A DNA stretch of 64,000 nt from Spirochaetota bacterium (GTDB lineage: Bacteria; Spirochaetota; UBA4802; UB4802): contig JBBFLA010000005.1 in the NCBI GenBank assembly GCA_037481795.1, positions 25,512 through 89,511 on the forward strand, in the 5' to 3' direction. Both the position numbers and the translations under genes were made by a program. Under the pieces are notes generated by a model. It did not search any database. It was not told the origin of the DNA and was given only the letters and a program-made list of their open reading frames with translations. Shown here piece after piece: positions 2,834 to 64,000 of the stretch (positions are counted from its first letter, which is position 1; the number at the start of each line of letters is the position of its first letter).

Positions 2834-3088
2834 TTGATAAACGAAGCAATGAAGGATATCGTGGTTTACAAATATGATTCTTTGATTCATTTCAAAATGA
2901 AAACTATTTCCTTATTTTCCAAAAGATTTAAAGGTTGTAAAATAATAGACCGCTTATTAAAAAAATACAGTGATTATAATGAATGTAATGTAGCAAAAGT
3001 CAACATGAAAAATAATAGTATTGACAGTGTGTTTTTTAAAGTATATAATCAAACAGTAAAGGCTAATTTAAATAATTTCATTAATTGA
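2834..3088 (+). CDS. hypothetical small K/N-rich protein (doubtful)
   Basis: Only ORF in the 337-bp gap between the patatin gene and the sixA-like gene. It has a TTG start, no clear RBS and no recognisable motif. Confidence 0.2.
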   Translation: MINEAMKDIVVYKYDSLIHFKMKTISLFSKRFKGCKIIDRLLKKYSDYNECNVAKVNMKNNSIDSVFFKVYNQTVKANLNNFIN

Positions 3089-3125
3089 GTAATGAATTAT
3101 ACTCCTCTTATACCTGGAGGGTAAC

Positions 3126-3611
3126 ATGGAAGCAATTGTAGTGCAGCATGGCGAAGCTGTTGAGACATCGGTAAACCCTGAAAGGCCATTATCAATAAAA
3201 GGGCAGGAGCAATTTCAAAGATTAGCTCAATTTTTGAAAATCATTAACTGGAAACCGGATATTATTATTCATAGTGGAATATTGAGGGCATATGAAAGTG
3301 CGGCGATAGTTGCTGGGGAATTTCAATGCGAAGTTGCAGTCAACAAATCTATAAACCCCAAAGACAATCCCGATGATATTATACAGTATTTATTGCTTGA
3401 AAAAAGGAATGTTATCGTAGTAACCCATAAACCATTTATTGATGTACTGATTGCAAGGGTGTTATCAACTTCTCAAACCGGTTTAGTAACTATAACAAAT
3501 GCTTCCCCCGTTTTTTTATCCAGTGATGGTGAAATGCTATATTGCAGGGCACATATTCCTGAATCAATGATAGATGCCATTATTCGTTCTTTTTCAAACC
3601 GGCAATCATAA
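3126..3611 (+). CDS. sixA: SixA-type phosphohistidine phosphatase homologue (RHG motif reads QHG)
   Basis: GGAGGG lies upstream of the ATG. The protein is colinear with SixA: VVQHGEA / ERPLSIKG / HSGILRAYES / VVTHKPF correspond to RHGDA / RPLT.G / SPFLRAEQT / ISHLP. Confidence 0.75.
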   Translation: MEAIVVQHGEAVETSVNPERPLSIKGQEQFQRLAQFLKIINWKPDIIIHSGILRAYESAAIVAGEFQCEVAVNKSINPKDNPDDIIQYLLLEKRNVIVVTHKPFIDVLIARVLSTSQTGLVTITNASPVFLSSDGEMLYCRAHIPESMIDAIIRSFSNRQS

Positions 3612-14647: not shown

Positions 14648-16272
14648 TTGTGCGACAGCTCTTCTAATATTCTTAAAATCTCGGGCAACAACTGTTTTTT
14701 ACGGGATAAAATGCCAGGAAGGTTGTACATATGTGGTCCACGAGGTGAAAAACTTAGCTTTTGTTCTCCAATAAAATCAGTTGAGAAAAGAATACTGTTT
14801 TGAGTTGTAATATCAGTTACCAGCAGGAGTGCCCAGTGAACATTTCTGCTTTGTGCGAAGTGGGAAAGAGCGTTTAGAAGGGATTCTTTGACACTTTCAA
14901 TATCATCAAGCGTAATAACCTCTACCTGCGATATGGCGACCGATATGCCATATTCCTGGTATATCTTGCAGTCATTGCTCACCGCATACATAGGGTCTAT
15001 AGTTTTAAGGCTTTCGGTAGATGAAAGAAGCTTCTTCCCATATTCTTCATAGTATATGCCTGCTATTGCTGACAGCTCTTCCAGTGCTTTTTTGTCAATT
15101 TGGGTGCTTGTAGGTGATAAAAGCATTGCAGTATCAGATAATATTCCGCTACATAAAAGCAATGCTATGTGAGGCTCTGGTTGAATGGCATTATATTTGT
15201 AAAGCTCATAAACCAGTGTACATGTGCTGCCTACTGGTTTAGAATACACAAATATTGGAGTAGTGGTTTTGATTGCTCCCAGGCGATGATGGTCAATGAT
15301 TTCAATGATATGTGCAGTCTCGGCACCTTCAACTGCCTGCGATAGTTCATTATGATCAACCAGTATCATTTTTTTTGCATATTGCTTAATGAGGTCAGAA
15401 CGGGTTATGATACCTGTGAGTTTACCATTGTCACATACAGGAAGTCCCCGATATTCGCTGTTTAATATTTTTTCTCGTGCCTGTTGCACAGTGCTATCAG
15501 GCAAAATAATATCTGACTTTTTCATGATGGAATGGCAGGGAATGCTTAAGGTAAGCAGGCGCAATGTATTGAATGTATCCAGTTGTGAAAGGTATACCCA
15601 GCCTGAATAGGTGGTGGTATCGTAATTAAAATCCTGAATACCGGTTACTATGATTGCAGCAAAATTATTCTTAATTGCAAATTCAATTATTGATTTTCGG
15701 TTCCCAACAATGAGTACAGTGTGATCAGGTTTGACGTTTTTTAACACATTAAGAGATTGGGCTGATTCCATTGCGCCAATAACAATATGGCCTTCAAATT
15801 CTTCATTTTGCCCCTTTTTAATGCAACGTCCGGGAATGGTAGTAATAAAATTCGCAGGCTTAAAGTAATAGAGTGGTTGAGCAGTGGAAGTAGCAGAAAA
15901 GTAAAACTCTGCCAGCTCTGCAAAGCTTACGATACCTTTATAGTAACTATCGCCACTAACAACAGGTATTATGCGCACACGGTCTTTTTCAATGTGTGTT
16001 ACTATGGAAAGCAGGGGATCGTCAGGATGCGCAGTTATGACATTGCGGGTCATTATATCGCTGACTTTAGGATATACATCTTTCAGCATTTCCGGTGGCT
16101 GGAGGTTAACCTCTTCAAAAACAAATCGTGTTTGCCTGTTTACATTGCCACAGCGGTATGCGGTGTATCGGTAATGAGGGTCAATGATGTTTTTCAGATG
16201 TGCATAGCAATATGCTGCACATATTGAATCAGTATCAGGATTTTTATGGCCAATGACAATAATCTCTTCCAT
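14644..16272 (-). CDS. CBS-domain family II (DHH/DHHA2) inorganic pyrophosphatase
   Basis: Has HKNPDTDSICAA, VDHNE and IIDHHRLG DHH motifs, with a CBS pair inserted between them and a DHHA2 C-terminus. Confidence 0.85.
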   Translation of the reverse strand: MEEIIVIGHKNPDTDSICAAYCYAHLKNIIDPHYRYTAYRCGNVNRQTRFVFEEVNLQPPEMLKDVYPKVSDIMTRNVITAHPDDPLLSIVTHIEKDRVRIIPVVSGDSYYKGIVSFAELAEFYFSATSTAQPLYYFKPANFITTIPGRCIKKGQNEEFEGHIVIGAMESAQSLNVLKNVKPDHTVLIVGNRKSIIEFAIKNNFAAIIVTGIQDFNYDTTTYSGWVYLSQLDTFNTLRLLTLSIPCHSIMKKSDIILPDSTVQQAREKILNSEYRGLPVCDNGKLTGIITRSDLIKQYAKKMILVDHNELSQAVEGAETAHIIEIIDHHRLGAIKTTTPIFVYSKPVGSTCTLVYELYKYNAIQPEPHIALLLCSGILSDTAMLLSPTSTQIDKKALEELSAIAGIYYEEYGKKLLSSTESLKTIDPMYAVSNDCKIYQEYGISVAISQVEVITLDDIESVKESLLNALSHFAQSRNVHWALLLVTDITTQNSILFSTDFIGEQKLSFSPRGPHMYNLPGILSRKKQLLPEILRILEELSHK

Positions 16273-54836: not shown

Positions 54837-57461
54837 TTACTTTACCGGTACATCTTCAGGCTTCACTAAAAGAAACTCAACGCGGCGGTTTCGTCTTCGG
54901 TTTTCAACGCTTGTGTTGGGTAAAAATGGTGATGTTTCTCCCATACCGCGTGATGATAAGCGCTTTTTATCAATGCCCTTTTTAACAAGATAATCCATAA
55001 CCGATTGAGCTCGCGCTTCAGAAAGCTTCAGGTTATACTGTTCCTCACCTATGTCGTCAGTATGCCCTTCAATCAAAACGTTGTACTTCTCGTATTTGTT
55101 CAATATCTCAGCAACTCTGTTTAAAATAGGGAATGCTTTCCCGGTTAATTTTGCACTGTCAAATGCAAATTCAATGTTACTGATGCGAATCTTTAATCCT
55201 CGTTCTGTCACCATGACCAGTACATCAATGGGTAACTTTATGCGTTTTGTCTTTGCAGAATTTCCGGTTATATCGATGGCCGATAATTCCATGAAGTAAT
55301 CCGCGGCAGATTCAACAAGCTCATTGTTTATCCCAATGCCATCCCACTTGAGCTCTGCAGGCGCTTCAGTGCCTTTGAATGTTTTAAATACATATCCAGC
55401 TGGTGCATAGATTACCAATTCCCAGCTTCTGATTCCAACATTATCGTTAAGAGTTGGGGTTATGGTGAGAATATCGTTTTCTCCATCACCATCAGGTGAG
55501 AAAAGCCCGGGTTCATAGGATAGATTGACATCAGGTGGAGTATTATCAATGGTAAAAGATTTTACGAATGACTGTGGGTTATTGCCACTTAAATATTCAG
55601 CACTAAATCTGTAGCGATAGATGCCATCATTTAGTTTTTTGCCTTTGTCTGTCATGCAATCCCAGGTAATTGTTTTTGGTATCACCTGGCCTTCAGTCTG
55701 ATATACAGGCTTATCCTTTTCATCAGTTACAACCAGTTGCCATTTAACAAGGTCTTTGGTGTCAGAGACTATAGGGGTAAATACTATAGTGTTGTGTAAT
55801 GCATGTGAAAAATATTCCCGTGATGCACTGATATCTACTGTCTGGTACTGGCGGGTTAAACTGATTTCACGGATTGTAGCCTGTGCTTTATTGCCCGCAT
55901 TGTCGGTGCATTGAATCTGATAGATATACAGTCCTTCAGGTACATCATTGCCAGCGTCATCTTTACCATCCCATACCAGTGTTTTGGGAATTTCAGCACC
56001 CTGAAACGTAAATTTTTTTACAATTTTCCCATCTTTATCTATAAACGTTGCATGCCATACATCATTACCTTGAGTCTTTATAGTTTGGATTATCTTTAAA
56101 GTATCCTTACGGCCATCATTGTTTGGTGAAAAGAATCGGTCTTCAACAGAGAGTTCAACAACAGGAGGAGTATTATCTATAGTAATAACCCCGCTCACCT
56201 CAGGTGATATGTTATCTCGCTCATCCCATGCCATAAATGCATATACATAGTCACCGTCTGGCAAAACATTTGCATTGGTATCGGTGCCATCCCAGAAAAT
56301 GGTTTCAGGAACCACGGCGGATTCCTTTGGAGTCCATATCTTCTGTATAAAACTTTTTACTGTCAGTGATTCTTCAACATCTCTATCGCTTACCCTGAAT
56401 TCTTTAACTACAGTTCCTGCATCATTTCTAATCTGTAATCGCCAACCACCAATCTTGCTTGCATCGCTCACACTTACATTAAACAGTACAAAATCCTGAA
56501 CTCCATCCGTATTGGGGGATATATATCGCTGGCTTGCGTTTACAGCAGTTTGTGGTGGCTCCTTATCTAACCTTCCATAGCGTACCTGTGTACCAACATA
56601 ATGGACAAAATCAGTCTTTTTATAATGTACCAGTGCATAATTAAATTCGGCCTGATATTCCTGCCCGGTGAGCCTGTAGCCAGCGCCTGCCGAAAAATCA
56701 GCATATTTGTACGGTCCAGGGGCCATAAAACCCAAACGAACAAAATAAGTATTTTTATAAACACCTTCGGCACCAACCTTTACTGCTATCTCATCATATT
56801 GTACTAAAGTATAATCATTAAGCAGGCTCACCTGGATATCATTTCTTTTATACAATGGGAGCGTATAGCCAGCAGTTACCTGATTCATGTCGGCAAAATC
56901 CCTGTCACTTCCCATTGGGAGCCCTGCATTAAGAGCAATACCAATGGTTGGGGAATACAAGCCAAAGCCTTTACCAATATCAACATTAAAAGCAGTTTGA
57001 TACATGCTGCCAAGAGTGATACCTGTAAAATATGCACCAGAGTCAGGTCCATTGCCTAACAAAAATGATAGCGATACACCCATGGAAAGCCGCCGTGTAA
57101 ATTCTTTGGCACCACCCACTGCAAACTGATAGCCATTGAGGGTGTCAGAGCCAGAGATCATCCTGAATGCACCTGCAATGACACCGTATGAGGTGGGAAA
57201 GCCTGCAACTACTGATGGATTATAGTAATCAAAAAGGAGATTGCCATAGTTAAATGAGCCAATAAAACGCTCTTCTTTTGCAATAGCTGCCGGGTTTATA
57301 AAGAAGGTGTCAGAGCCAGAGTAGGCAACACCGGTATCAGCTCTTCCAAACATGCTGGCACTGCCTCCAAGCAGCATCAGTGCAGTACCATCAGAAGCAG
57401 CATGTACTATGGTGTCAGAGCAAATAAATAGTATAGCAATGATAACAAAACGGATTTTCAC
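54837..57461 (-). CDS. large outer-membrane protein: N-terminal barrel-like region, four FlgD-Ig-like modules, C-terminal OmpA peptidoglycan-binding domain
   Basis: Signal peptide. Four repeats of FSPN.DG..D...W.L...D..G......WDG.D..G..VPDG.Y.Y...A.D.AGN...IDNTPP. The C-terminus FAFDSAKL...EGHTDDIGEEQYNLKLSEARAQSV...NRRVEF is an OmpA domain. Confidence 0.85.
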   Translation of the reverse strand: MKIRFVIIAILFICSDTIVHAASDGTALMLLGGSASMFGRADTGVAYSGSDTFFINPAAIAKEERFIGSFNYGNLLFDYYNPSVVAGFPTSYGVIAGAFRMISGSDTLNGYQFAVGGAKEFTRRLSMGVSLSFLLGNGPDSGAYFTGITLGSMYQTAFNVDIGKGFGLYSPTIGIALNAGLPMGSDRDFADMNQVTAGYTLPLYKRNDIQVSLLNDYTLVQYDEIAVKVGAEGVYKNTYFVRLGFMAPGPYKYADFSAGAGYRLTGQEYQAEFNYALVHYKKTDFVHYVGTQVRYGRLDKEPPQTAVNASQRYISPNTDGVQDFVLFNVSVSDASKIGGWRLQIRNDAGTVVKEFRVSDRDVEESLTVKSFIQKIWTPKESAVVPETIFWDGTDTNANVLPDGDYVYAFMAWDERDNISPEVSGVITIDNTPPVVELSVEDRFFSPNNDGRKDTLKIIQTIKTQGNDVWHATFIDKDGKIVKKFTFQGAEIPKTLVWDGKDDAGNDVPEGLYIYQIQCTDNAGNKAQATIREISLTRQYQTVDISASREYFSHALHNTIVFTPIVSDTKDLVKWQLVVTDEKDKPVYQTEGQVIPKTITWDCMTDKGKKLNDGIYRYRFSAEYLSGNNPQSFVKSFTIDNTPPDVNLSYEPGLFSPDGDGENDILTITPTLNDNVGIRSWELVIYAPAGYVFKTFKGTEAPAELKWDGIGINNELVESAADYFMELSAIDITGNSAKTKRIKLPIDVLVMVTERGLKIRISNIEFAFDSAKLTGKAFPILNRVAEILNKYEKYNVLIEGHTDDIGEEQYNLKLSEARAQSVMDYLVKKGIDKKRLSSRGMGETSPFLPNTSVENRRRNRRVEFLLVKPEDVPVK
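57141..57151 (+). repeat. GGTGTCAGAGC copy 1 (inside the OmpA-like gene, antisense to it)
   Basis: Exact 11-mer. The 16 nt GGTGTCAGAGCCAGAG are identical to copy 2. Confidence 0.95.
57306..57316 (+). repeat. GGTGTCAGAGC copy 2 (inside the OmpA-like gene)
   Basis: Exact 11-mer, followed by CAGAG as in copy 1. Confidence 0.95.
57411..57421 (+). repeat. GGTGTCAGAGC copy 3 (inside the OmpA-like gene, signal-peptide region)
   Basis: Exact 11-mer. Confidence 0.95.
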
Positions 57462-57654
57462 GATTATCCTCCTGTATAAGTGTGGAATTTTTATATTTTT
57501 TTTACATTCATTATACGCAAAATATTTTTTGTCAAGTGGTTATATTTTTACATAGGGGAATTGACAAAGGTCAAAATGATTAGTATTTTAGAATATACTT
57601 TATAAATGCTATTTAAGTGAGTATTAATAAACATTTTATCATGAGGATAGAACA

Positions 57655-58128
57655 ATGAAAGAAGATATTTTATTAAACAAACCTGCTCCCCAATTCAAGC
57701 TCCCTGATAAAGATAAACAGGTAGTAGAAAGCAATAATTTCAGAGGCAAGTGGGTAGTTGTTTATTTTTATCCCAAAGACAATACCCAAGGATGTACCCT
57801 GGAAGCTATCGATTTTACCAAAAGCATAAATGAATTTAAAGATTACAATGCTGTTGTTTTAGGCATTAGCCCCGATAGCCCTGAAAGCCATTGCAGATTT
57901 TATGATAAACATAACCTTAATCTGATTCTCTTGTCGGATACTGATCATACAGTGGCAAAAGCATACGGGGTATGGAAAAAAAAGAGCATGTATGGCAAAA
58001 ACTTTATGGGGATAGAGCGAAGTACATTCCTGATTGATCCTGAAGGCAGGGTCAGAGCAGTATGGCGAAAGGTTAAGGTGCCAGGGCATGTTGAAAAAGT
58101 ATTGCAAACGATCAAATCTTTACAGTAA
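57655..58128 (+). CDS. bcp: thiol peroxidase / peroxiredoxin Bcp
   Basis: The segment FYPKDNTQGCTLEA carries the peroxidatic Cys. AhpC/TSA fold length (157 aa). Confidence 0.9.
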   Translation: MKEDILLNKPAPQFKLPDKDKQVVESNNFRGKWVVVYFYPKDNTQGCTLEAIDFTKSINEFKDYNAVVLGISPDSPESHCRFYDKHNLNLILLSDTDHTVAKAYGVWKKKSMYGKNFMGIERSTFLIDPEGRVRAVWRKVKVPGHVEKVLQTIKSLQ

Positions 58129-58139
58129 AGGAGGTTGCC

Positions 58140-58697
58140 ATGAAATTGCAGGAAGCTATTGAGACAAGAAGAGCATACAGGTCACTTGCAACGGTAACAA
58201 TTAATGAAACAATGGTGTCAGAGCTTGCAAAAGCGGCCTCCCTTGCCCCATCGTGCTATAATAATCAGCCATGGAGGTTTGTATTTGTCTATGAATCGGG
58301 AAAACTTAACGAAGTAAAAAAAGCCCTGGCAAAGGGCAATGAATGGGCTCTTAAGGCTTCCATGATTATAGTGGTTTTCAGCAAGGAAAAGGATGATTGT
58401 ATCTTGAAAAATCGTATATATCATCAATTTGATACGGGAATGGCTACAGCACTTTTACTTCTTAAAGCAACTGAATTAGGTTTGGTGGCTCACCCCATAG
58501 CAGGGTATGATGAAGAGGCAGTTAAAAAAGCGTGCGCTATACCTGATGAGTTTACTGTAATTACCCTGATCATTGTTGGTAAAAAAGATGATGTAATACA
58601 TGATGATTTGAGCCAATGGCAAAAGGAAAGCGAAAAGAGCCGCCCACCACGAAAACCGTTACACGAATTTGCGTTTCATAATGTCTACGGTGGTTAA
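58140..58697 (+). CDS. nitroreductase-family protein
   Basis: Has RRAYRS, APS..N.QPW.F and HP..G motifs. 185 aa. Confidence 0.85.
   Translation: MKLQEAIETRRAYRSLATVTINETMVSELAKAASLAPSCYNNQPWRFVFVYESGKLNEVKKALAKGNEWALKASMIIVVFSKEKDDCILKNRIYHQFDTGMATALLLLKATELGLVAHPIAGYDEEAVKKACAIPDEFTVITLIIVGKKDDVIHDDLSQWQKESEKSRPPRKPLHEFAFHNVYGG
58214..58224 (+). repeat. GGTGTCAGAGC copy 4 (inside the nitroreductase gene, sense strand)
   Basis: Exact 11-mer, read as M-V-S-E-L (codons 25-29). Confidence 0.95.
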
Positions 58698-58707
58698 AGG
58701 TTTAAGG

Positions 58708-59280
58708 TCAGAGCCGCAATTCTCCCATCACAATTGCTTTGAAGCACTCAATGCATTCCTCAAGGCTATCACCCAGCTCTAAAAAATAATCATGATATGT
58801 TATTGTTATATGTGAGCGATAGTTACTGTCAAAATAAGCTTTAGATCCACCAAAGTAGCTTTCAAACGGGCTTTTTACCTTCCCTGCACGCACCGGATTG
58901 TTAGCAAAATACCAGATTAAATTAAGTAAATACATGCGTGGATTATCTGCAAATTCAACAATGGTATCTTTAAAGCGCTCATTCCACACAGGACCAGTTC
59001 GACCAGTTAATCTATTATACTTTTGTGCAAAACGCGATTTGATATACTGCACAATACGGGAGATGGTAGCCCCATCTGGCACAGTTGTAATAAGCAGGTG
59101 AATGTGATTATCCATAATCTGGTAGTTTATAAGTTTAAATGAGTATTTTTCCTGAGCGCGTATAAGATAATACTCAAGAATAGCTTTCATGGTATCATCC
59201 GACAATAAGTTTTTGCATTCTATAAGACGGCTTGTGACATGATAGGTTAAATTTGGAGCAATGATACGTAATTTACGCAT
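58708..59280 (-). CDS. REP-associated tyrosine transposase-like protein (RAYT; HUH/Y1, IS200-like fold)
   Basis: Has YHVTSR, the HUH motif MDNHIHLLI, GPVWNERF and the catalytic-Tyr motif WYFANNPVRAG. At 190 aa it is longer than IS200 TnpA. No IS ends or tnpB lie nearby. Confidence 0.78.
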   Translation of the reverse strand: MRKLRIIAPNLTYHVTSRLIECKNLLSDDTMKAILEYYLIRAQEKYSFKLINYQIMDNHIHLLITTVPDGATISRIVQYIKSRFAQKYNRLTGRTGPVWNERFKDTIVEFADNPRMYLLNLIWYFANNPVRAGKVKSPFESYFGGSKAYFDSNYRSHITITYHDYFLELGDSLEECIECFKAIVMGELRL

Positions 59281-59381
59281 GGTAATTTCCTCCCAAAGTA
59301 TAAGATTTTTATGGTGTGCTATATATACAAACGCTTGAGGACGAAAAATTGTAAAAAAAAAATTAAAATTTCGGAAAAAAA

Positions 59382-59716
59382 GGTGTCAGAGCCAGGGGAA
59401 GTAAGTGGGTGAGATGTGAGGGGTAAGGAGATGACATTGCTGGTGTCAGAGCTGGAAAGATGAAAGCATGAAAAGTAAGGTGTGAAGTGTAAATAGTTGG
59501 GAAGAGATGGATAAGGTGTCAGAGCTGCAACAATAGCAAGGTTTGAGGAGATTAAAAGATGATGTGATAGGGATTAATTATATTTCATTATCATAGAAAT
59601 CATGGTGTCAGAGCCAAAATTATATCACTGTGCTGGAGTTCGCAAAAATAAATGGATTAGCGAAACAAAATCAAAGTGCAGGACATAAGATTTTTAAATA
59701 ACCGTGGTGTCAGAGC
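59382..59716 (+). repeat. array of five direct GGTGTCAGAGC copies (copies 5-9) with non-repetitive spacers of 49, 62, 78 and 91 nt
   Basis: Exact copies start at 59382, 59442, 59515, 59604 and 59706. The array lies in the 5-prime flank of the RAYT gene. The first ~190 nt are G/A-rich and almost devoid of C on the + strand. Confidence 0.95.
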
Positions 59717-59771
59717 AAAAGATTTTCATAATTTCCTTGCACAATATAACTATTATTCATACGATGTATTC

Positions 59772-59999
59772 ATGGATGGGTTACTTTTGAACAGGCAACT
59801 TCTATTGCTAATTGTATTGGGAACTATATTTGGAATTTTTGCTGCAATAGCTGCATTTGTTAATGTCTATAATGGATACAGCCATTTCCCCAATATATCA
59901 AAAACTAAGCGGATACGCATATCTTTATCTATAGCGCTTGGTGCATTTATTATTATTCTTGCAATTACTATTATTTCTATGCTGGTTTTAAACAAGTAA
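59772..59999 (+). CDS. small two-TM membrane protein (75 aa from the ATG at 59772; the ORF track starts at the GTG at 59676)
   Basis: Two clear hydrophobic helices (LLLLIVLGTIFGIFAAIAAFV and ISLSIALGAFIIILAITIISMLVL). No RBS is evident. Confidence 0.4.
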   Translation: MDGLLLNRQLLLLIVLGTIFGIFAAIAAFVNVYNGYSHFPNISKTKRIRISLSIALGAFIIILAITIISMLVLNK

Positions 60000-60144
60000 A
60001 AAATGAAATTGATAACATACACCATAATCAAATTATTGACAATTTTTACACTTATTTTTTTGTTGAAAACACATGCAATAATGGATAAAATACTAGTATG
60101 TTATCCGGCGATGGAGTTCGCCGTAAACCGCTCTTAAAGAGCTG

Positions 60145-60185
60145 ATAACTCCTGTGGCAAATATATTACTATAACAGGAGGTTAT
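60145..60185 (+). promoter_or_regulatory. Shine-Dalgarno-sequestering hairpin in the leader of the dynamin-like gene
   Basis: ATAACTCCTGT (60145-60155) pairs with ACAGGAGGTTAT (60174-60185): 11 bp with a one-G bulge and an 18-nt loop. The 3-prime arm contains the AGGAGG SD, which ends 9 nt before the ATG at 60191. Confidence 0.55.
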
Positions 60186-60190
60186 TTTAT

Positions 60191-61999
60191 ATGAGCGGTA
60201 ACACCAACACCAATGTTTCACATCACAATAGCCATCAGTTGACACAATCTCTTTTAAGTTTAATTCAGCTTATTGAAAAAATGGGCAGTGAATATGAGCT
60301 CTATAAAATTAAACTTGAAGAGATAGCAACGCGTTATTCGCAGGGGAAAATCCATCTGGCAGTGTTGGGACAGTTTAAACGAGGGAAAAGCTCTTTGCTG
60401 AATGCTATACTGGGAGCCAGACTACTACCTACTGCTGTAATCCCTCTGACGTCAATTCCTACATACATACGATACAGTGATCGCCCGTATGTACATGTTA
60501 CCTTTGCGCACAATAAAGCAGGAGATACATTTGCCTCAGATAAGCCCGAAGAGCTGCAACAATTCCTTTCTATGTATGTTTCAGAAGAAGCTAATCCTAA
60601 CAATGCATTGCATGTTGAAAGTGTTGAATTTTATTATGATGCTGACATTTTGCTCAAAGGAGTAGTGCTTATTGACACTCCGGGAATAGGATCCACCCAT
60701 AAGCACAATACCGAGGCAACCCTCAATTTTTTACCACAATGTGATGCGGCGCTTTTCCTGATATCGGCCGACCCACCCATTACCGAGGTTGAGCTTGATT
60801 TTTTGCGTCAGGTAACTACCAAGGTTAATAAGATATTTTTCATACTTAATAAAATTGACTATCTTACTACAGATGAGTTGAATGAGGTACAGCAATTTAT
60901 ATCAAGAGTTATTCGGGAGAGAGCTAGTATAACTGAAGATTTGGCAATGTATCCGGTTTCAGCAAAGCATGGATTGCAGGCAAAATTAAGTAACGATGCC
61001 GTCTTGCTATCAAAAAGCAGATTAGATGTCCTTGAAAACCATATTGTTGATTTTATGTCAAAAAAGAAGGAAGCGGTTTTGCAAAAGAGCGTTCCCAGAA
61101 AAAGTCTTGATATTCTCTCTGATCTGGAATTGCAATTACAGCTTTCGCTAAAAGCGTACATGATGCCTCAGGAAGAATTACAACAAAAACTAATAGTATT
61201 TGACCACACCATACAGCAGGCAGAACAGCAGAAAACATTTTCTTCGGATATTCTGACGGGAGAGAGGAAACGGCTGCTTGAGCTATTGGAAGAGCAGGCA
61301 GAAAATTTGCGAAAGAAAGCCAGAAATTATTTAGAATCAGTTGCATACCGTAACCTATATGAAAATGGTACAGTAAATGAAGATGACATTACCAAAGCTT
61401 TAGCCGAAGCTATACCGGAATTTTTTGAGCGCGAGTTGGGAACAATGTCACAATTTTTTGACAACCATGTTGCACAGGTTATTGAAATGCATCAGAAACG
61501 TGCAAATGAGATAATAGACTCAGTGCGCAAAGCAGCTTCGGATTTATTTGATATTCCGTATATCCCTCATGCCCCAATCAGTGGTCTGGAAGTAACAAAA
61601 GAACCGTATTGGGTAATGCATCAATGGCGCTATTCGTTTATGGCAGTGCCTGAAGAGCTTGTTGACAAACTATTGCTAAAAAATGTTAGGATTAAACGTA
61701 TAAAGAAACGAATTGACCGGCAAATTCAAGCTCTGGTACTCAACAATGTAGAAAATTTGCGCTGGGCAACTGTGCAGAATCTGGATTCAACATTCCGTAC
61801 TATAATGCTGAGCATTGATGAACAGTTTGAACGGGTTATCACCATCACCCGTAAGGCAATTAATATTGCAGTTGAGCGGAAGCAATCATATAGCAAGGAA
61901 GTTGCAGACCAGATAGAGCATTTGAAACACTTAATTGCTGCATTGAGTGAGTACAAGAAGAATATAGCTTCATTCATCACGGATACTGTTTCGGTTTAA
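60191..61999 (+). CDS. bacterial dynamin-like GTPase
   Basis: G1 GQFKRGKSSLLNAILG, G3 LIDTPGIGS and G4 ILNKIDYL, followed by a long helical stalk region. Confidence 0.85.
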   Translation: MSGNTNTNVSHHNSHQLTQSLLSLIQLIEKMGSEYELYKIKLEEIATRYSQGKIHLAVLGQFKRGKSSLLNAILGARLLPTAVIPLTSIPTYIRYSDRPYVHVTFAHNKAGDTFASDKPEELQQFLSMYVSEEANPNNALHVESVEFYYDADILLKGVVLIDTPGIGSTHKHNTEATLNFLPQCDAALFLISADPPITEVELDFLRQVTTKVNKIFFILNKIDYLTTDELNEVQQFISRVIRERASITEDLAMYPVSAKHGLQAKLSNDAVLLSKSRLDVLENHIVDFMSKKKEAVLQKSVPRKSLDILSDLELQLQLSLKAYMMPQEELQQKLIVFDHTIQQAEQQKTFSSDILTGERKRLLELLEEQAENLRKKARNYLESVAYRNLYENGTVNEDDITKALAEAIPEFFERELGTMSQFFDNHVAQVIEMHQKRANEIIDSVRKAASDLFDIPYIPHAPISGLEVTKEPYWVMHQWRYSFMAVPEELVDKLLLKNVRIKRIKKRIDRQIQALVLNNVENLRWATVQNLDSTFRTIMLSIDEQFERVITITRKAINIAVERKQSYSKEVADQIEHLKHLIAALSEYKKNIASFITDTVSV

Positions 62000-62278
62000 C
62001 GAAAAATTTTTAAGCATTACTTTAAAGCGATAGTTCATCGTAAAAGGATTATTGTGATAATTTTTCCTCAAATGACATTGCATCAAAGGATACTGTATCG
62101 GCACCGCTTTTTTTTATAAGCTATTAGATAAGGCTAAATTATAGAATATCATGAACCCTGCTTTTTAAATATTACGTACTCACAAATGGTAATGCTGTCC
62201 TGCCATTGGGCACCCATTGTGTTAAATGCTCCCACATTTTGTAACGACATTAACACATGAATAAATATAATTTTTTTA

Positions 62279-62308
62279 TTGACAAATACAAATTAATATA
62301 TATATATT
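62279..62308 (+). promoter_or_regulatory. candidate sigma-70-type promoter for the acyl-CoA ligase gene
   Basis: TTGACA at 62279-62284, followed at 16-18 nt by TATATA/ATATAT/TATATT. It is 40 nt upstream of the TAGGAGA RBS. Confidence 0.35.
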
Positions 62309-62344
62309 ACAATATAATGATTATACAAATTAGGAGATTAATTT

Positions 62345-64000
62345 ATGAAATCACCATATGCTTCAAAACCATGGTTAAAACATTATGACAAGGATGTCCC
62401 GGCAACAATACAATACCACCAGACGCCATTGCATAAAATGCTTGAAAAAAGTGCATATGAATATCCTCACAACACTGCACTCATTTTTGAAGGTTACAAG
62501 GTAAATTATATTGAACTTTTATTTATGGTAAAAAAATTTGCAACTTTTCTCAGTTCAATTGGCGTCAAAAAGGGGGATGTGGTTGCTATCCTTTTGCCAA
62601 ATATGATTCAAACTGTAGTGGCATATTATGCCACTATAAGTATTGGTGGAATTGTTGCCATGTGTAACCCACTGTATAGTGACCGAGAGCTTGAATACCA
62701 GTTTAATGATTCAGGGGCAAAGGTTTTGGTATGTCTTGACCTTCTTGCAAACCGCATGATTAAGCTTCGCTCTGTCACCGGCATTGAGCACATCATTTAT
62801 GCTTCTATTGGTGACTATCTCCCATTTCCCAAAAATATTCTTTTTCCTCTTGTTGCCAGTAAAAACAACATGAAGGCCACGGTGTCTCCTGCATCAAATG
62901 TCTATCATTTTAAATATTGCATCAAGGTGTCAGAGCCCAATCCTCCAAAAGTAGATATTACCTTTGATGATGTGGTTGCCTACCAGTACACTGGCGGAAC
63001 AACGGGTGTATCAAAAGGAGCAATACTCACTCACCGCAATTTGGGGTGTATGGTGCAGATGTACGAAAAATGGTTTAATACCAATCGTGGTGAAGAAATA
63101 GCAATGGCTGCACCGCCAATATTTCATGTATTGGGGATGTCAGCTGCTATGAATTTGCCATTATATATGGGATGGACAATAGTTCTTATACCAAAACCAC
63201 AGCCGGAAAATCTGCTTAAAGCCATACGCTTGTACCGACCTACCATGTCACCGCTTGTACCAACAATGTATGTTGGCATGCTGCAACATCCTGATTTAAA
63301 GAAAACCGATATGACCTGCTTCAAGCTGTTAACATCAGGTGGTGCTTCATTGCCACTTGAAGTATTGCAGGAGTTTAAGAGGCTTACCGGTGTTGAGATT
63401 AATGAAGGCTTTGGCATGACCGAAACATCACCACAGACCCATCTCAACCCGTATAAGGGAAAGAAAAAACCGGGCAGCATTGGCATACCATATCCTGATA
63501 CTGAGGTTAAAATAGTAGATTTGGAAACAGGAACAAAAGAAGTGCCAATTGGTAAGCCAGGTGAGATGCTTTTCCGCGGCCCACAGGTAACCCAGGGGTA
63601 TCATAATAAACCTGAAGAAACCAAAAAGGCTTTTACTAAGGATGGATTTTTAAAATCTGGCGATATAGCTTATATGGATAAAGATGGGTACTTCTTTGTC
63701 GTTGACCGCAAGAAGGACCTCATTATTTCGGGTGGATACAATATATACCCGCGTGAAATTGAAGAAGTGCTGTATCAGCATGAAAGAGTTGCTAAATGCG
63801 CCGTTATAGGCATACCTGATGCAAAACGTGGGGAAAACGTTAAAGCGTTTGTTGTTTTAAAAGAGGGTATGAGTGCAACCCCTGATGAATTAATTGATTT
63901 CTGCAAAGAGCGTCTGGCTAAATATAAATGGCCTGTTGAAATTGAAATCAGAAAGAGCTTGCCCGAATCCAATGTTGGTAAGATTCTTAAAAAGGAATTA
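62345..64000 (+). CDS. long-chain-fatty-acid--CoA ligase (AMP-binding family), 3-prime end outside the window
   Basis: TAGGAGA RBS. The frame is open from 62345 to the window end, so the gene is absent from the ORF track. It has the AMP-binding motif YTGGTTGVSKGA, GFGMTE and GDIAYMDKDGYFFVVDRKKD. Confidence 0.9.
   Translation, partial: MKSPYASKPWLKHYDKDVPATIQYHQTPLHKMLEKSAYEYPHNTALIFEGYKVNYIELLFMVKKFATFLSSIGVKKGDVVAILLPNMIQTVVAYYATISIGGIVAMCNPLYSDRELEYQFNDSGAKVLVCLDLLANRMIKLRSVTGIEHIIYASIGDYLPFPKNILFPLVASKNNMKATVSPASNVYHFKYCIKVSEPNPPKVDITFDDVVAYQYTGGTTGVSKGAILTHRNLGCMVQMYEKWFNTNRGEEIAMAAPPIFHVLGMSAAMNLPLYMGWTIVLIPKPQPENLLKAIRLYRPTMSPLVPTMYVGMLQHPDLKKTDMTCFKLLTSGGASLPLEVLQEFKRLTGVEINEGFGMTETSPQTHLNPYKGKKKPGSIGIPYPDTEVKIVDLETGTKEVPIGKPGEMLFRGPQVTQGYHNKPEETKKAFTKDGFLKSGDIAYMDKDGYFFVVDRKKDLIISGGYNIYPREIEEVLYQHERVAKCAVIGIPDAKRGENVKAFVVLKEGMSATPDELIDFCKERLAKYKWPVEIEIRKSLPESNVGKILKKEL
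62926..62936 (+). repeat. GGTGTCAGAGC copy 10 (inside the acyl-CoA ligase gene, sense strand)
   Basis: Exact 11-mer, read as K-V-S-E-P (codons 194-198). Confidence 0.95.

Follow-up and report, generated by a model that had tools for sequence, protein, structure and literature searches.

A direct-repeat array beside a RAYT-like Y1 nuclease gene as part of a putative module of motif-bounded cassettes in a Spirochaetota bacterium

What kind of element is a short sequence that recurs five times, each time joined to a different stretch of unique DNA, next to the gene for a Y1 HUH nuclease? The question is raised by a locus in the 64-kb stretch of DNA analyzed here (the window), where GGTGTCAGAGC occurs on the + strand in exact copies starting at 59382, 59442, 59515, 59604, and 59706. 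The first four copies each open a unit consisting of the motif and a spacer. Unit 1 (59382–59441, motif 59382–59392) carries a 49-nt unique, purine-rich spacer, unit 2 (59442–59514, motif 59442–59452) a spacer of 62 nt, unit 3 (59515–59603, motif 59515–59525) one of 78 nt, and unit 4 (59604–59705, motif 59604–59614) one of 91 nt. The fifth copy (59706–59716) is the distal boundary of the array and is followed by the upstream region of a small membrane-protein ORF. An earlier note, made from the letters alone, had described five copies with start-to-start steps of 60, 73, 89, and 102 nt, and the exact matches bear this out. It had also said that no ORF spans the array; indeed, the only ORFs that touch it are one of 33 aa at copy 1 and one of 107 aa at copy 5. 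Allowing for at most one mismatch, GGTGTCAGAGC has 12 matches in the window versus 0.24 expected, and 12 matches were reached in none of 100 shuffles.

Two features had been stressed as defining for this array, its graded spacing and its G/A richness. Both are real here: between 59393 and 59580 we count exactly 7 C in the 166 nt outside the motif copies, where about 7 had been noted, and the purine fraction of the same DNA is 0.72 versus a window mean of 0.51. Both are missing from relatives generally. The steady widening has no parallel among about 30 related arrays, which hold 2–8 copies at irregular spacing with no gradient, and a monotonic order of four intervals arises by chance about 1 time in 12. 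In relatives, the C depletion of the cassettes is mild (14% vs 17% C), and three other stretches within the window are as poor in C as the array. Graded spacing was accordingly rejected as a design feature, as was C depletion as a general property. Since the relatives are irregularly spaced and only mildly C-poor, the widening, which is incidental, and the strong purine richness belong to the particular cassettes of this array and not to the mechanism. We also considered that the spacers might be diverged duplicates of each other; compared pairwise, no two of them scored above shuffled sequences, and this idea was rejected.

The gene adjoining the array lies on the − strand (58708–59280) and encodes a 190-aa RAYT/TnpAREP-like Y1 HUH nuclease that matches Pfam Y1_Tnp with E = 2e-12. 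Its score of 71.8 bits with the NCBIfam model REP_Tyr_transpos is under the equivalog cut-off of 80. Across 24 homologues, H59 and H61 of the N58-H59-I60-H61 motif are invariant and the Y124-x3-N128-P129 motif is nearly so. The top PDB match to the AlphaFold model of the protein (pLDDT 92.6) is E. coli TnpAREP (4ER8; E = 2e-7, TM 0.62/0.70), followed by the ISDra2 and IS608 TnpA transposases, and a profile search also returns 4ER8 with E = 6.5e-5. The Y1_Tnp match, the conserved HUH and Y-x3-NP motifs, and TnpAREP as the best fold justify the label RAYT-like, although the equivalog threshold is missed. Judging by the conserved HUH and Tyr motifs and a predicted fold like that of TnpAREP, IS608, and ISDra2, the enzyme looks active. 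With respect to the subclasses of Quentin 2018, the HUH-to-Tyr distance of 63–65 aa speaks against 2.3, 2.4, and 2.6, and the Tyr motif YFANNP is a better fit to 2.4 or 2.7 than to 2.1. Between the gene and the first motif copy is a leader (59281–59381, − strand) that contains a GGAGG ribosome-binding site, a GCGTT(T/G)TATATA block, and an A/T-rich tract. The block resembles an extended −10 element, is conserved in 15 aligned leaders, and is probably a promoter. The neighboring genes in the window encode a nitroreductase, a peroxiredoxin, a dynamin-like GTPase, and an acyl-CoA synthetase.

Does the motif accompany the gene elsewhere? A pattern scan for paired motif copies at a distance of 48–78 nt, run on one genome per species, gave 85 loci versus about 2 expected by our own estimate, many of which were set aside as coding G-S-D-T repeats or true CRISPR repeats. 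A Y1 gene is located within the same 8-kb block at 7 of the 85, these being loci of Leptospirales, Uabimicrobium, Sandaracinaceae, a gammaproteobacterium, and Spongiihabitans. In the last four, the distant Y1 homologues beside the identical 11-mer have HMM E values of 1e-24 to 1e-37. A metagenome scan with an alignment of Y1 homologues yielded 80 loci, and motif densities were counted over 76 non-identical Y1-homologue loci, split at 64% identity into 26 loci at or above that value and 50 below it. On the strand opposite the gene, between −600 and −80, the core GTCAGAGC is present at 8.9/kb in the ≥64% clade and at 4.1/kb in the <64% clade; past 5 kb from the gene it falls to 0.02–0.13/kb. The tie to the RAYT gene claimed in the earlier note thus holds, as a motif enrichment that we observe at 76 Y1 loci. 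The region 0.6–4 kb downstream of the Y1 gene is also enriched, coding genes included. In the ≥64% clade, 13 of the 26 loci have a copy at the 3′ end of the gene (+540 to +640) on the strand of the upstream array, so that direct copies bracket the gene; in the <64% clade, where 28 of 50 loci have the 3′-end copy on the gene's own strand, the copies are arranged as inverted repeats.

The sites yield the logo RG[T/G]GTCAGAGC[A/C] and have flanks that carry no information. At position 3, T is found in 66% of the sites of the ≥64% clade and G in 91% of those of the <64% clade; the variant GGGGTCAG makes up 32% of the sites in the clade of the window and 91% in its sister clade. With T mostly found at this position in the one clade and G in the other, motif and protein co-vary. 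Three loci of Candidatus Uabimicrobium (L018, L051, L062) contain perfect tandem units of 19 or 22 nt in 7–16 copies within ~8 kb of a Y1 homologue. Each unit is GGTGTCAGAGC followed by an A-rich 8–11 nt, and these tandem arrays are an extreme short-cassette form of the motif array. Secondary motif arrays also occur at a distance of 6–9 kb from the Y1 gene, and no further Y1 gene adjoins them (L166, ~3080–3450; L113 and L129, ~800–1080).

The earlier note had confined the array to 59382–59716, and this did not survive a search of the whole window. All 10 exact copies of GGTGTCAGAGC fall within 57141–62936 and on one strand, with none in 1–55000; the five exact + strand copies outside the array, at 57141, 57306, 57411, 58214, and 62926, are all intragenic, and degenerate copies are found at 58704, 58048, and 55758. 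The copy at 58704–58714 (+; AAGGTCAGAGC) overlaps the Y1 stop codon, for which its complement GCTCTGAC gives Leu-TGA, and is the right-hand boundary of the gene cassette. The copy at 58214–58224 (+) is in the nitroreductase gene and that at 62926–62936 (+) in the acyl-CoA synthetase gene, both read V-S-E. A variant, AGGGTCAGAGC (58048–58058, +), sits in the peroxiredoxin gene and is kept in all relatives examined. The remaining three (57141–57421, +) are antisense in an 874-aa OmpA/FlgD_ig-type gene (54837–57461, − strand), where all are read S-D-T at spacings of 165 and 105 nt, each a multiple of 3. Recombination among these copies would delete 55, 35, or 90 codons in frame near the N-terminus of what is a surface protein. 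The extra copies recast the upstream array as a motif-bounded module.

Intragenic copies are conserved in syntenic relatives at a local identity of 82–92%. In another chromosomal context, one intragenic site is perfect in five genomes though its flanks are 72–82% identical, and another site differs by a cluster of 4 nt, with two amino acids changed as a result. These two cases argue that intragenic copies arise by substitution and not by insertion. Six relatives that have a Y1 gene also have a perfect motif in the nitroreductase gene, whereas in L186, which lacks the Y1 gene, this motif is degenerate (GGTGTTTGAGC). This decay is suggestive only, as a hint that the site may depend on the enzyme.

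A second short sequence, the 12-mer GTAACTATCGCC, is strongly over-represented in the window on both strands and in coding DNA too, with 24 matches at up to two mismatches versus 2.3 expected. It is exact at 15943 (+), 35660 (−), and 53709 (+), and has one-mismatch copies at 3302, 7299, 34213, 39846, 46490, 47024, 48370, 49485, and 58815. Its density is 0.36/kb in same-clade loci and 0 in loci from other phyla. It also occurs within many array cassettes, 6–12 nt ahead of a motif copy, and L010 contains the palindrome GGCGATAGTTATCGCC. This 12-mer may be uptake-sequence-like or HIP-like.

Comparison between strains shows that the units of the array act as cassettes. An independent assembly (GCA_049654865.1, L001) has the same array, in which four of the five units are present. 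Its identity to the window is 99.66% on the left side of the array; it has unit 1 with three substitutions, and it lacks exactly 59442–59514, that is, one motif and one spacer. Gain or loss of units between strains, which the earlier note had put forward as a comparison, is thus observed, and the assembly artefact that it had named as a refutation is not, the array being present in both assemblies. Over 59260–59441, the leader and spacer 1 differ from L001 by ~6–7%, against 0.34% in the left flank and 2.6% in the right flank. The array coincides with this step in divergence, which is possibly a recombination boundary. Cassette turnover is fast: in L102, whose protein is 92% identical in amino acids, most of the leader is retained and no spacer is in common.

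Clustering the spacers across 32 arrays revealed the same cassettes in different orders and numbers. Among loci with Y1 genes 87–100% identical, we observe permuted and duplicated cassettes: L104 reads C1 C2 C3 C3 C4 and L110 reads C2 C3 C3 C4 C1, while L108 has C1 C2 C4 and four others. L129 and L130, with genes 99% identical, carry C1 in fourth and first place, respectively. Six loci (L081, L037, L031, L019, L056, L073) contain nested spacers, which are prefixes of variable length of the DNA that follows the motif, joined to the constant 5–10 nt that precede it. This pattern indicates that breaks and joins recur beside the motif. As a separate observation, cassette C2 (L104, L108, L110, L112, L115), the first spacer of L091, and the secondary array of L166 consist of 5–6 tandem heptads GTTCAAN. 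Its presence in arrays of the two Y1 clades alike (55% and 77% identity to the protein of the window) suggests that this cassette is conserved and functional.

The gene itself appears to follow the same rule. Two loci, L186 and L187, are syntenic with the window (peroxiredoxin, nitroreductase, small membrane ORF, riboswitch, and dynamin-like gene) and have neither the Y1 gene nor its leader. After the nitroreductase stop they contain one AGGGTCAGAGC, one cassette in common with L108 and L114, a degenerate copy, and the same distal flank. We thus observe a presence/absence polymorphism in which the gap in gene and leader falls exactly between motif copies. This empty site implies that the gene and leader (58704–59381) are themselves a motif-bounded unit. 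The riboswitch at these loci is a fluoride riboswitch (RF01734; window 60098–60161, +, and L186 1609–1672; 58.7 and 54.1 bits) that in two species lies directly upstream of the gene for a ~600-aa dynamin-like GTPase, which is not a usual fluoride-regulated gene.

The 64-kb window has one copy of the Y1 gene. Y1 genes of its clade are located in at least four conserved chromosomal contexts, and one MAG (DYLU01) has contexts A, B, and C all present. Sites beside mfd, beside hbd, and beside the context-B genes are among the contexts of relatives. The Y1 sequences (L103–L124) cluster by species and not by context: nucleotide identity is 87–96% within a species group across contexts and 81–88% for the same context between groups, and arrays in different contexts of one species group have common cassettes. 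This within-species likeness points to concerted evolution or to repeated replacement of the gene cassette. The modules appear to be multi-copy and homogenized within genomes, through either gene conversion or motif-level exchange.

The reading that we favor, with a probability of roughly 60%, is that of a REPtron/TIRtron-like module whose cassettes, the gene included, would be recombined at the motif, most likely by the Y1 enzyme acting on single-stranded DNA. The array would be the densest part of a module of one-strand cognate sites (RG[T/G]GTCAGAGC) for the RAYT-like Y1 nuclease, with each motif and its spacer making up one cassette. Recombination of two motifs on the same strand would delete the intervening DNA and leave one motif, and the reverse reaction, or copying, would insert or duplicate a cassette. 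The nuclease gene with its leader (58704–59381) would likewise be a motif-bounded cassette. The likeliest catalyst would be the Y1 enzyme working on single-stranded DNA in the "peel and paste" manner of IS200/IS605, where two cuts on one strand would produce a circular single-stranded intermediate that reinserts at another motif copy. We infer the Y1 cleavage, the strandedness and single-stranded intermediate, and the direction of each event.

Some of the same products could come about in other ways. Precise deletions could also be obtained by replication slippage between direct repeats of 11–13 nt, circular permutations could follow from unequal exchange and deletion with no enzyme, and ordinary gene conversion could account for the within-genome homogenization of Y1 paralogues. 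The intragenic copies within about 4 kb, which came from substitution and not from insertion, are left unexplained by the cassette model. The motif also lacks structure. On neither strand does the array fold better than shuffled sequence (z of +0.71 and −0.15), with no hairpin, and the folding of the flanks of 220 and of 183 motif sites resembles that of random 51-mers; on these array folds and ~400 flanks, a REP-like or hairpin structure was rejected. To our knowledge, all characterized Y1 transposases and TnpAREP proteins recognize a hairpin (PMC3479197, PMC6006769), and a hairpin-less motif therefore counts against the cassette model.

A different account gives the motif a role in binding alone: the copies would be an operator or architectural array by which the Y1 protein, or some other factor, controls the divergent promoters, and the cassettes would change passively by replication slippage and unequal exchange. 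The positions of the outer copies are in its favor: the first copy lies at a narrow distance from the start codon, −95 to −170, just upstream of the conserved −10-like block, and the last often directly precedes the TTGACA-N17-TATAxx promoter of the neighboring gene. Deletion between direct repeats, moreover, requires no dedicated enzyme. However, a copy number of 2–8 with free spacing is unusual in operator arrays, and copies also bracket the 3′ end of the gene and occur within neighboring genes. The nested breaks and joins, the relocation of cassettes, and the presence or absence of a whole gene are hard to obtain by slippage alone, and the protein retains its catalytic HUH and Tyr residues. 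We consider this account unlikely.

The cassette reading may also be carried further. The Y1 enzyme and the 11-mer might form a self-contained cassette platform with integron-like logic and HUH chemistry, a means of programmed local diversification and not a decaying transposon. A small number of landing pads, each marked by the motif and fixed in its place on the chromosome, would then exchange non-coding cassettes and the nuclease gene, and the enzyme would also sharpen or maintain intragenic motifs, giving hot spots of in-frame deletion such as the 165- and 105-nt intervals in the OmpA-like gene. We put this forward as a speculation that is quite unlikely.

The layout of repeats and unique spacers, the conserved A/T-rich leader, and the complete turnover of spacers between close relatives also recall an array that is transcribed and processed into short RNAs, or a CRISPR-like store of captured foreign single-stranded DNA. 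The repeat is just 11–12 nt and unstructured, however, and the spacers range from 9 to >200 nt. No cas-type genes adjoin the array, a search of 54–64 kb against Rfam at E ≤ 1 gave nothing in the array and only the fluoride riboswitch elsewhere, and within the array no promoter or terminator exceeds shuffle expectation and no + strand sigma-70-like promoter faces in. The spacers have no significant matches in phages or plasmids, none in the rest of the window or in the 180 loci other than L001, and only three unrelated matches in viral contigs. The cassettes common to paralogous arrays in different contexts suggest copying and not independent capture. We regard this possibility as very improbable, and the earlier judgment, which set the array apart from CRISPRs and from simple tandem repeats, stands. 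A chance cluster or an assembly artefact, for which only the shortness of the repeat speaks, can be dismissed in view of the 12 matches against 0.24 expected with none of 100 shuffles reaching that number, the recurrence of the array in an independent assembly and at dozens of related loci, and a 13-nt repeat below the assembler k-mer size, which makes collapse unlikely.

How does the cassette module that we favor compare with known systems? One close system is the REPtron, a RAYT/TnpAREP gene flanked by REP/BIME clusters, as in the E. coli yafM type (PMC3479197, PMC8266576, PMC6006769). As in a REPtron, a class-2 Y1 HUH protein (Y-x3-NP) with 4ER8 as its best structural match is encoded by a gene that has clusters of a single specific short repeat on its flanks, and repeat and protein co-vary. 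Unlike REPs, the repeat of the window is a non-palindromic 11-mer with no hairpin and no GT[AG]G tag (neither GTAG nor GTGG is found at either end of the logo), and its copies all point the same way, separated by unique spacers that differ in length. Within the window they are concentrated in the ~4 kb around the gene and several are intragenic, whereas REPs are high-copy, dispersed, and extragenic; the relatives appear to have 3–4 gene copies per genome and not one. In TIRtrons, Y1 genes (TIRYT) are flanked by inverted repeats that share GGGGWSAS (Di Nocera 2013, PMC3733652; subclass 2.1, Quentin 2018, PMC6006769). GGGGTCAG fits this consensus, inverted copies bracket the gene at the 28 of 50 loci in the <64% clade, and the distant ~240-aa homologues beside the same 11-mer match subclass 2.1 in length. 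In the window, however, the copies at 58704 and 59382 are direct (on the same strand) and not inverted, the motif GGTGTCAG has T at position 3 where the consensus has G, and the 190-aa protein is without a helix-turn-helix tail.

The IS200/IS605 elements IS608 and ISDra2 have the same fold and catalytic motifs, and both boundaries of a unit are on one strand. A further likeness, inferred here for the cassettes and the gene, would be that the donor is resealed with one site after excision and that insertion takes place beside the same short sequence. The window array differs in that folding of the array and flanks gave no subterminal hairpins, there is no tnpB, and the "element" can be as small as 20–100 nt of non-coding DNA; the gene copies are at the same few contexts across species and are not scattered. 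As in an integron, a recombinase gene is divergent from an adjoining array whose cassettes appear to be excised, reinserted, and reordered at a short site, plausibly via single-stranded substrates, but here the protein is a HUH Y1 nuclease and not an IntI tyrosine recombinase, attC hairpins are lacking, and the cassettes are very short pieces of non-coding DNA. CRISPR arrays likewise combine short direct repeats with unique spacers that turn over rapidly, next to an A/T-rich leader. Their repeats, however, measure 23–55 nt versus 11 here and their spacers are near-uniform, whereas the window has irregular spacers (49–91 nt) and no cas genes, repeat structure, or protospacer matches. Genuine CRISPR arrays with a 36-nt repeat and ~30-nt spacers do occur at three Acidobacteriota/Terriglobia loci (L012, L023, L082), where the repeat starts with GGTGTCAGAGCC, the 12 bases of the Y1 motif. 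In the literature searched, the 11-mer gave unrelated primer matches only and the supplements of the key papers did not contain it. We likewise found no hairpin-less direct arrays of an 11-mer with unique cassettes in that literature, and no strain-level cassette shuffling, gene as cassette with an empty site, or motifs seeded in neighboring coding genes.

The arrays described here bear on how RAYT-type domesticated Y1 nucleases act on repeats in cells and on what the non-REP subclasses (TIRYT, groups 1 and 4) do. They are natural records of breaking and joining at a defined, hairpin-free 11-mer, which have left exact deletions of units, permuted cassettes, nested duplications, and, for the gene itself, an empty site. 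One short linear motif is a simple substrate for biochemistry, and the arrays add a population-genomic read-out to a question approached so far mostly via the REPs of E. coli. If the intragenic copies are functional, the system could also vary surface-protein genes locally and in frame, which would make it a new source of such variation.
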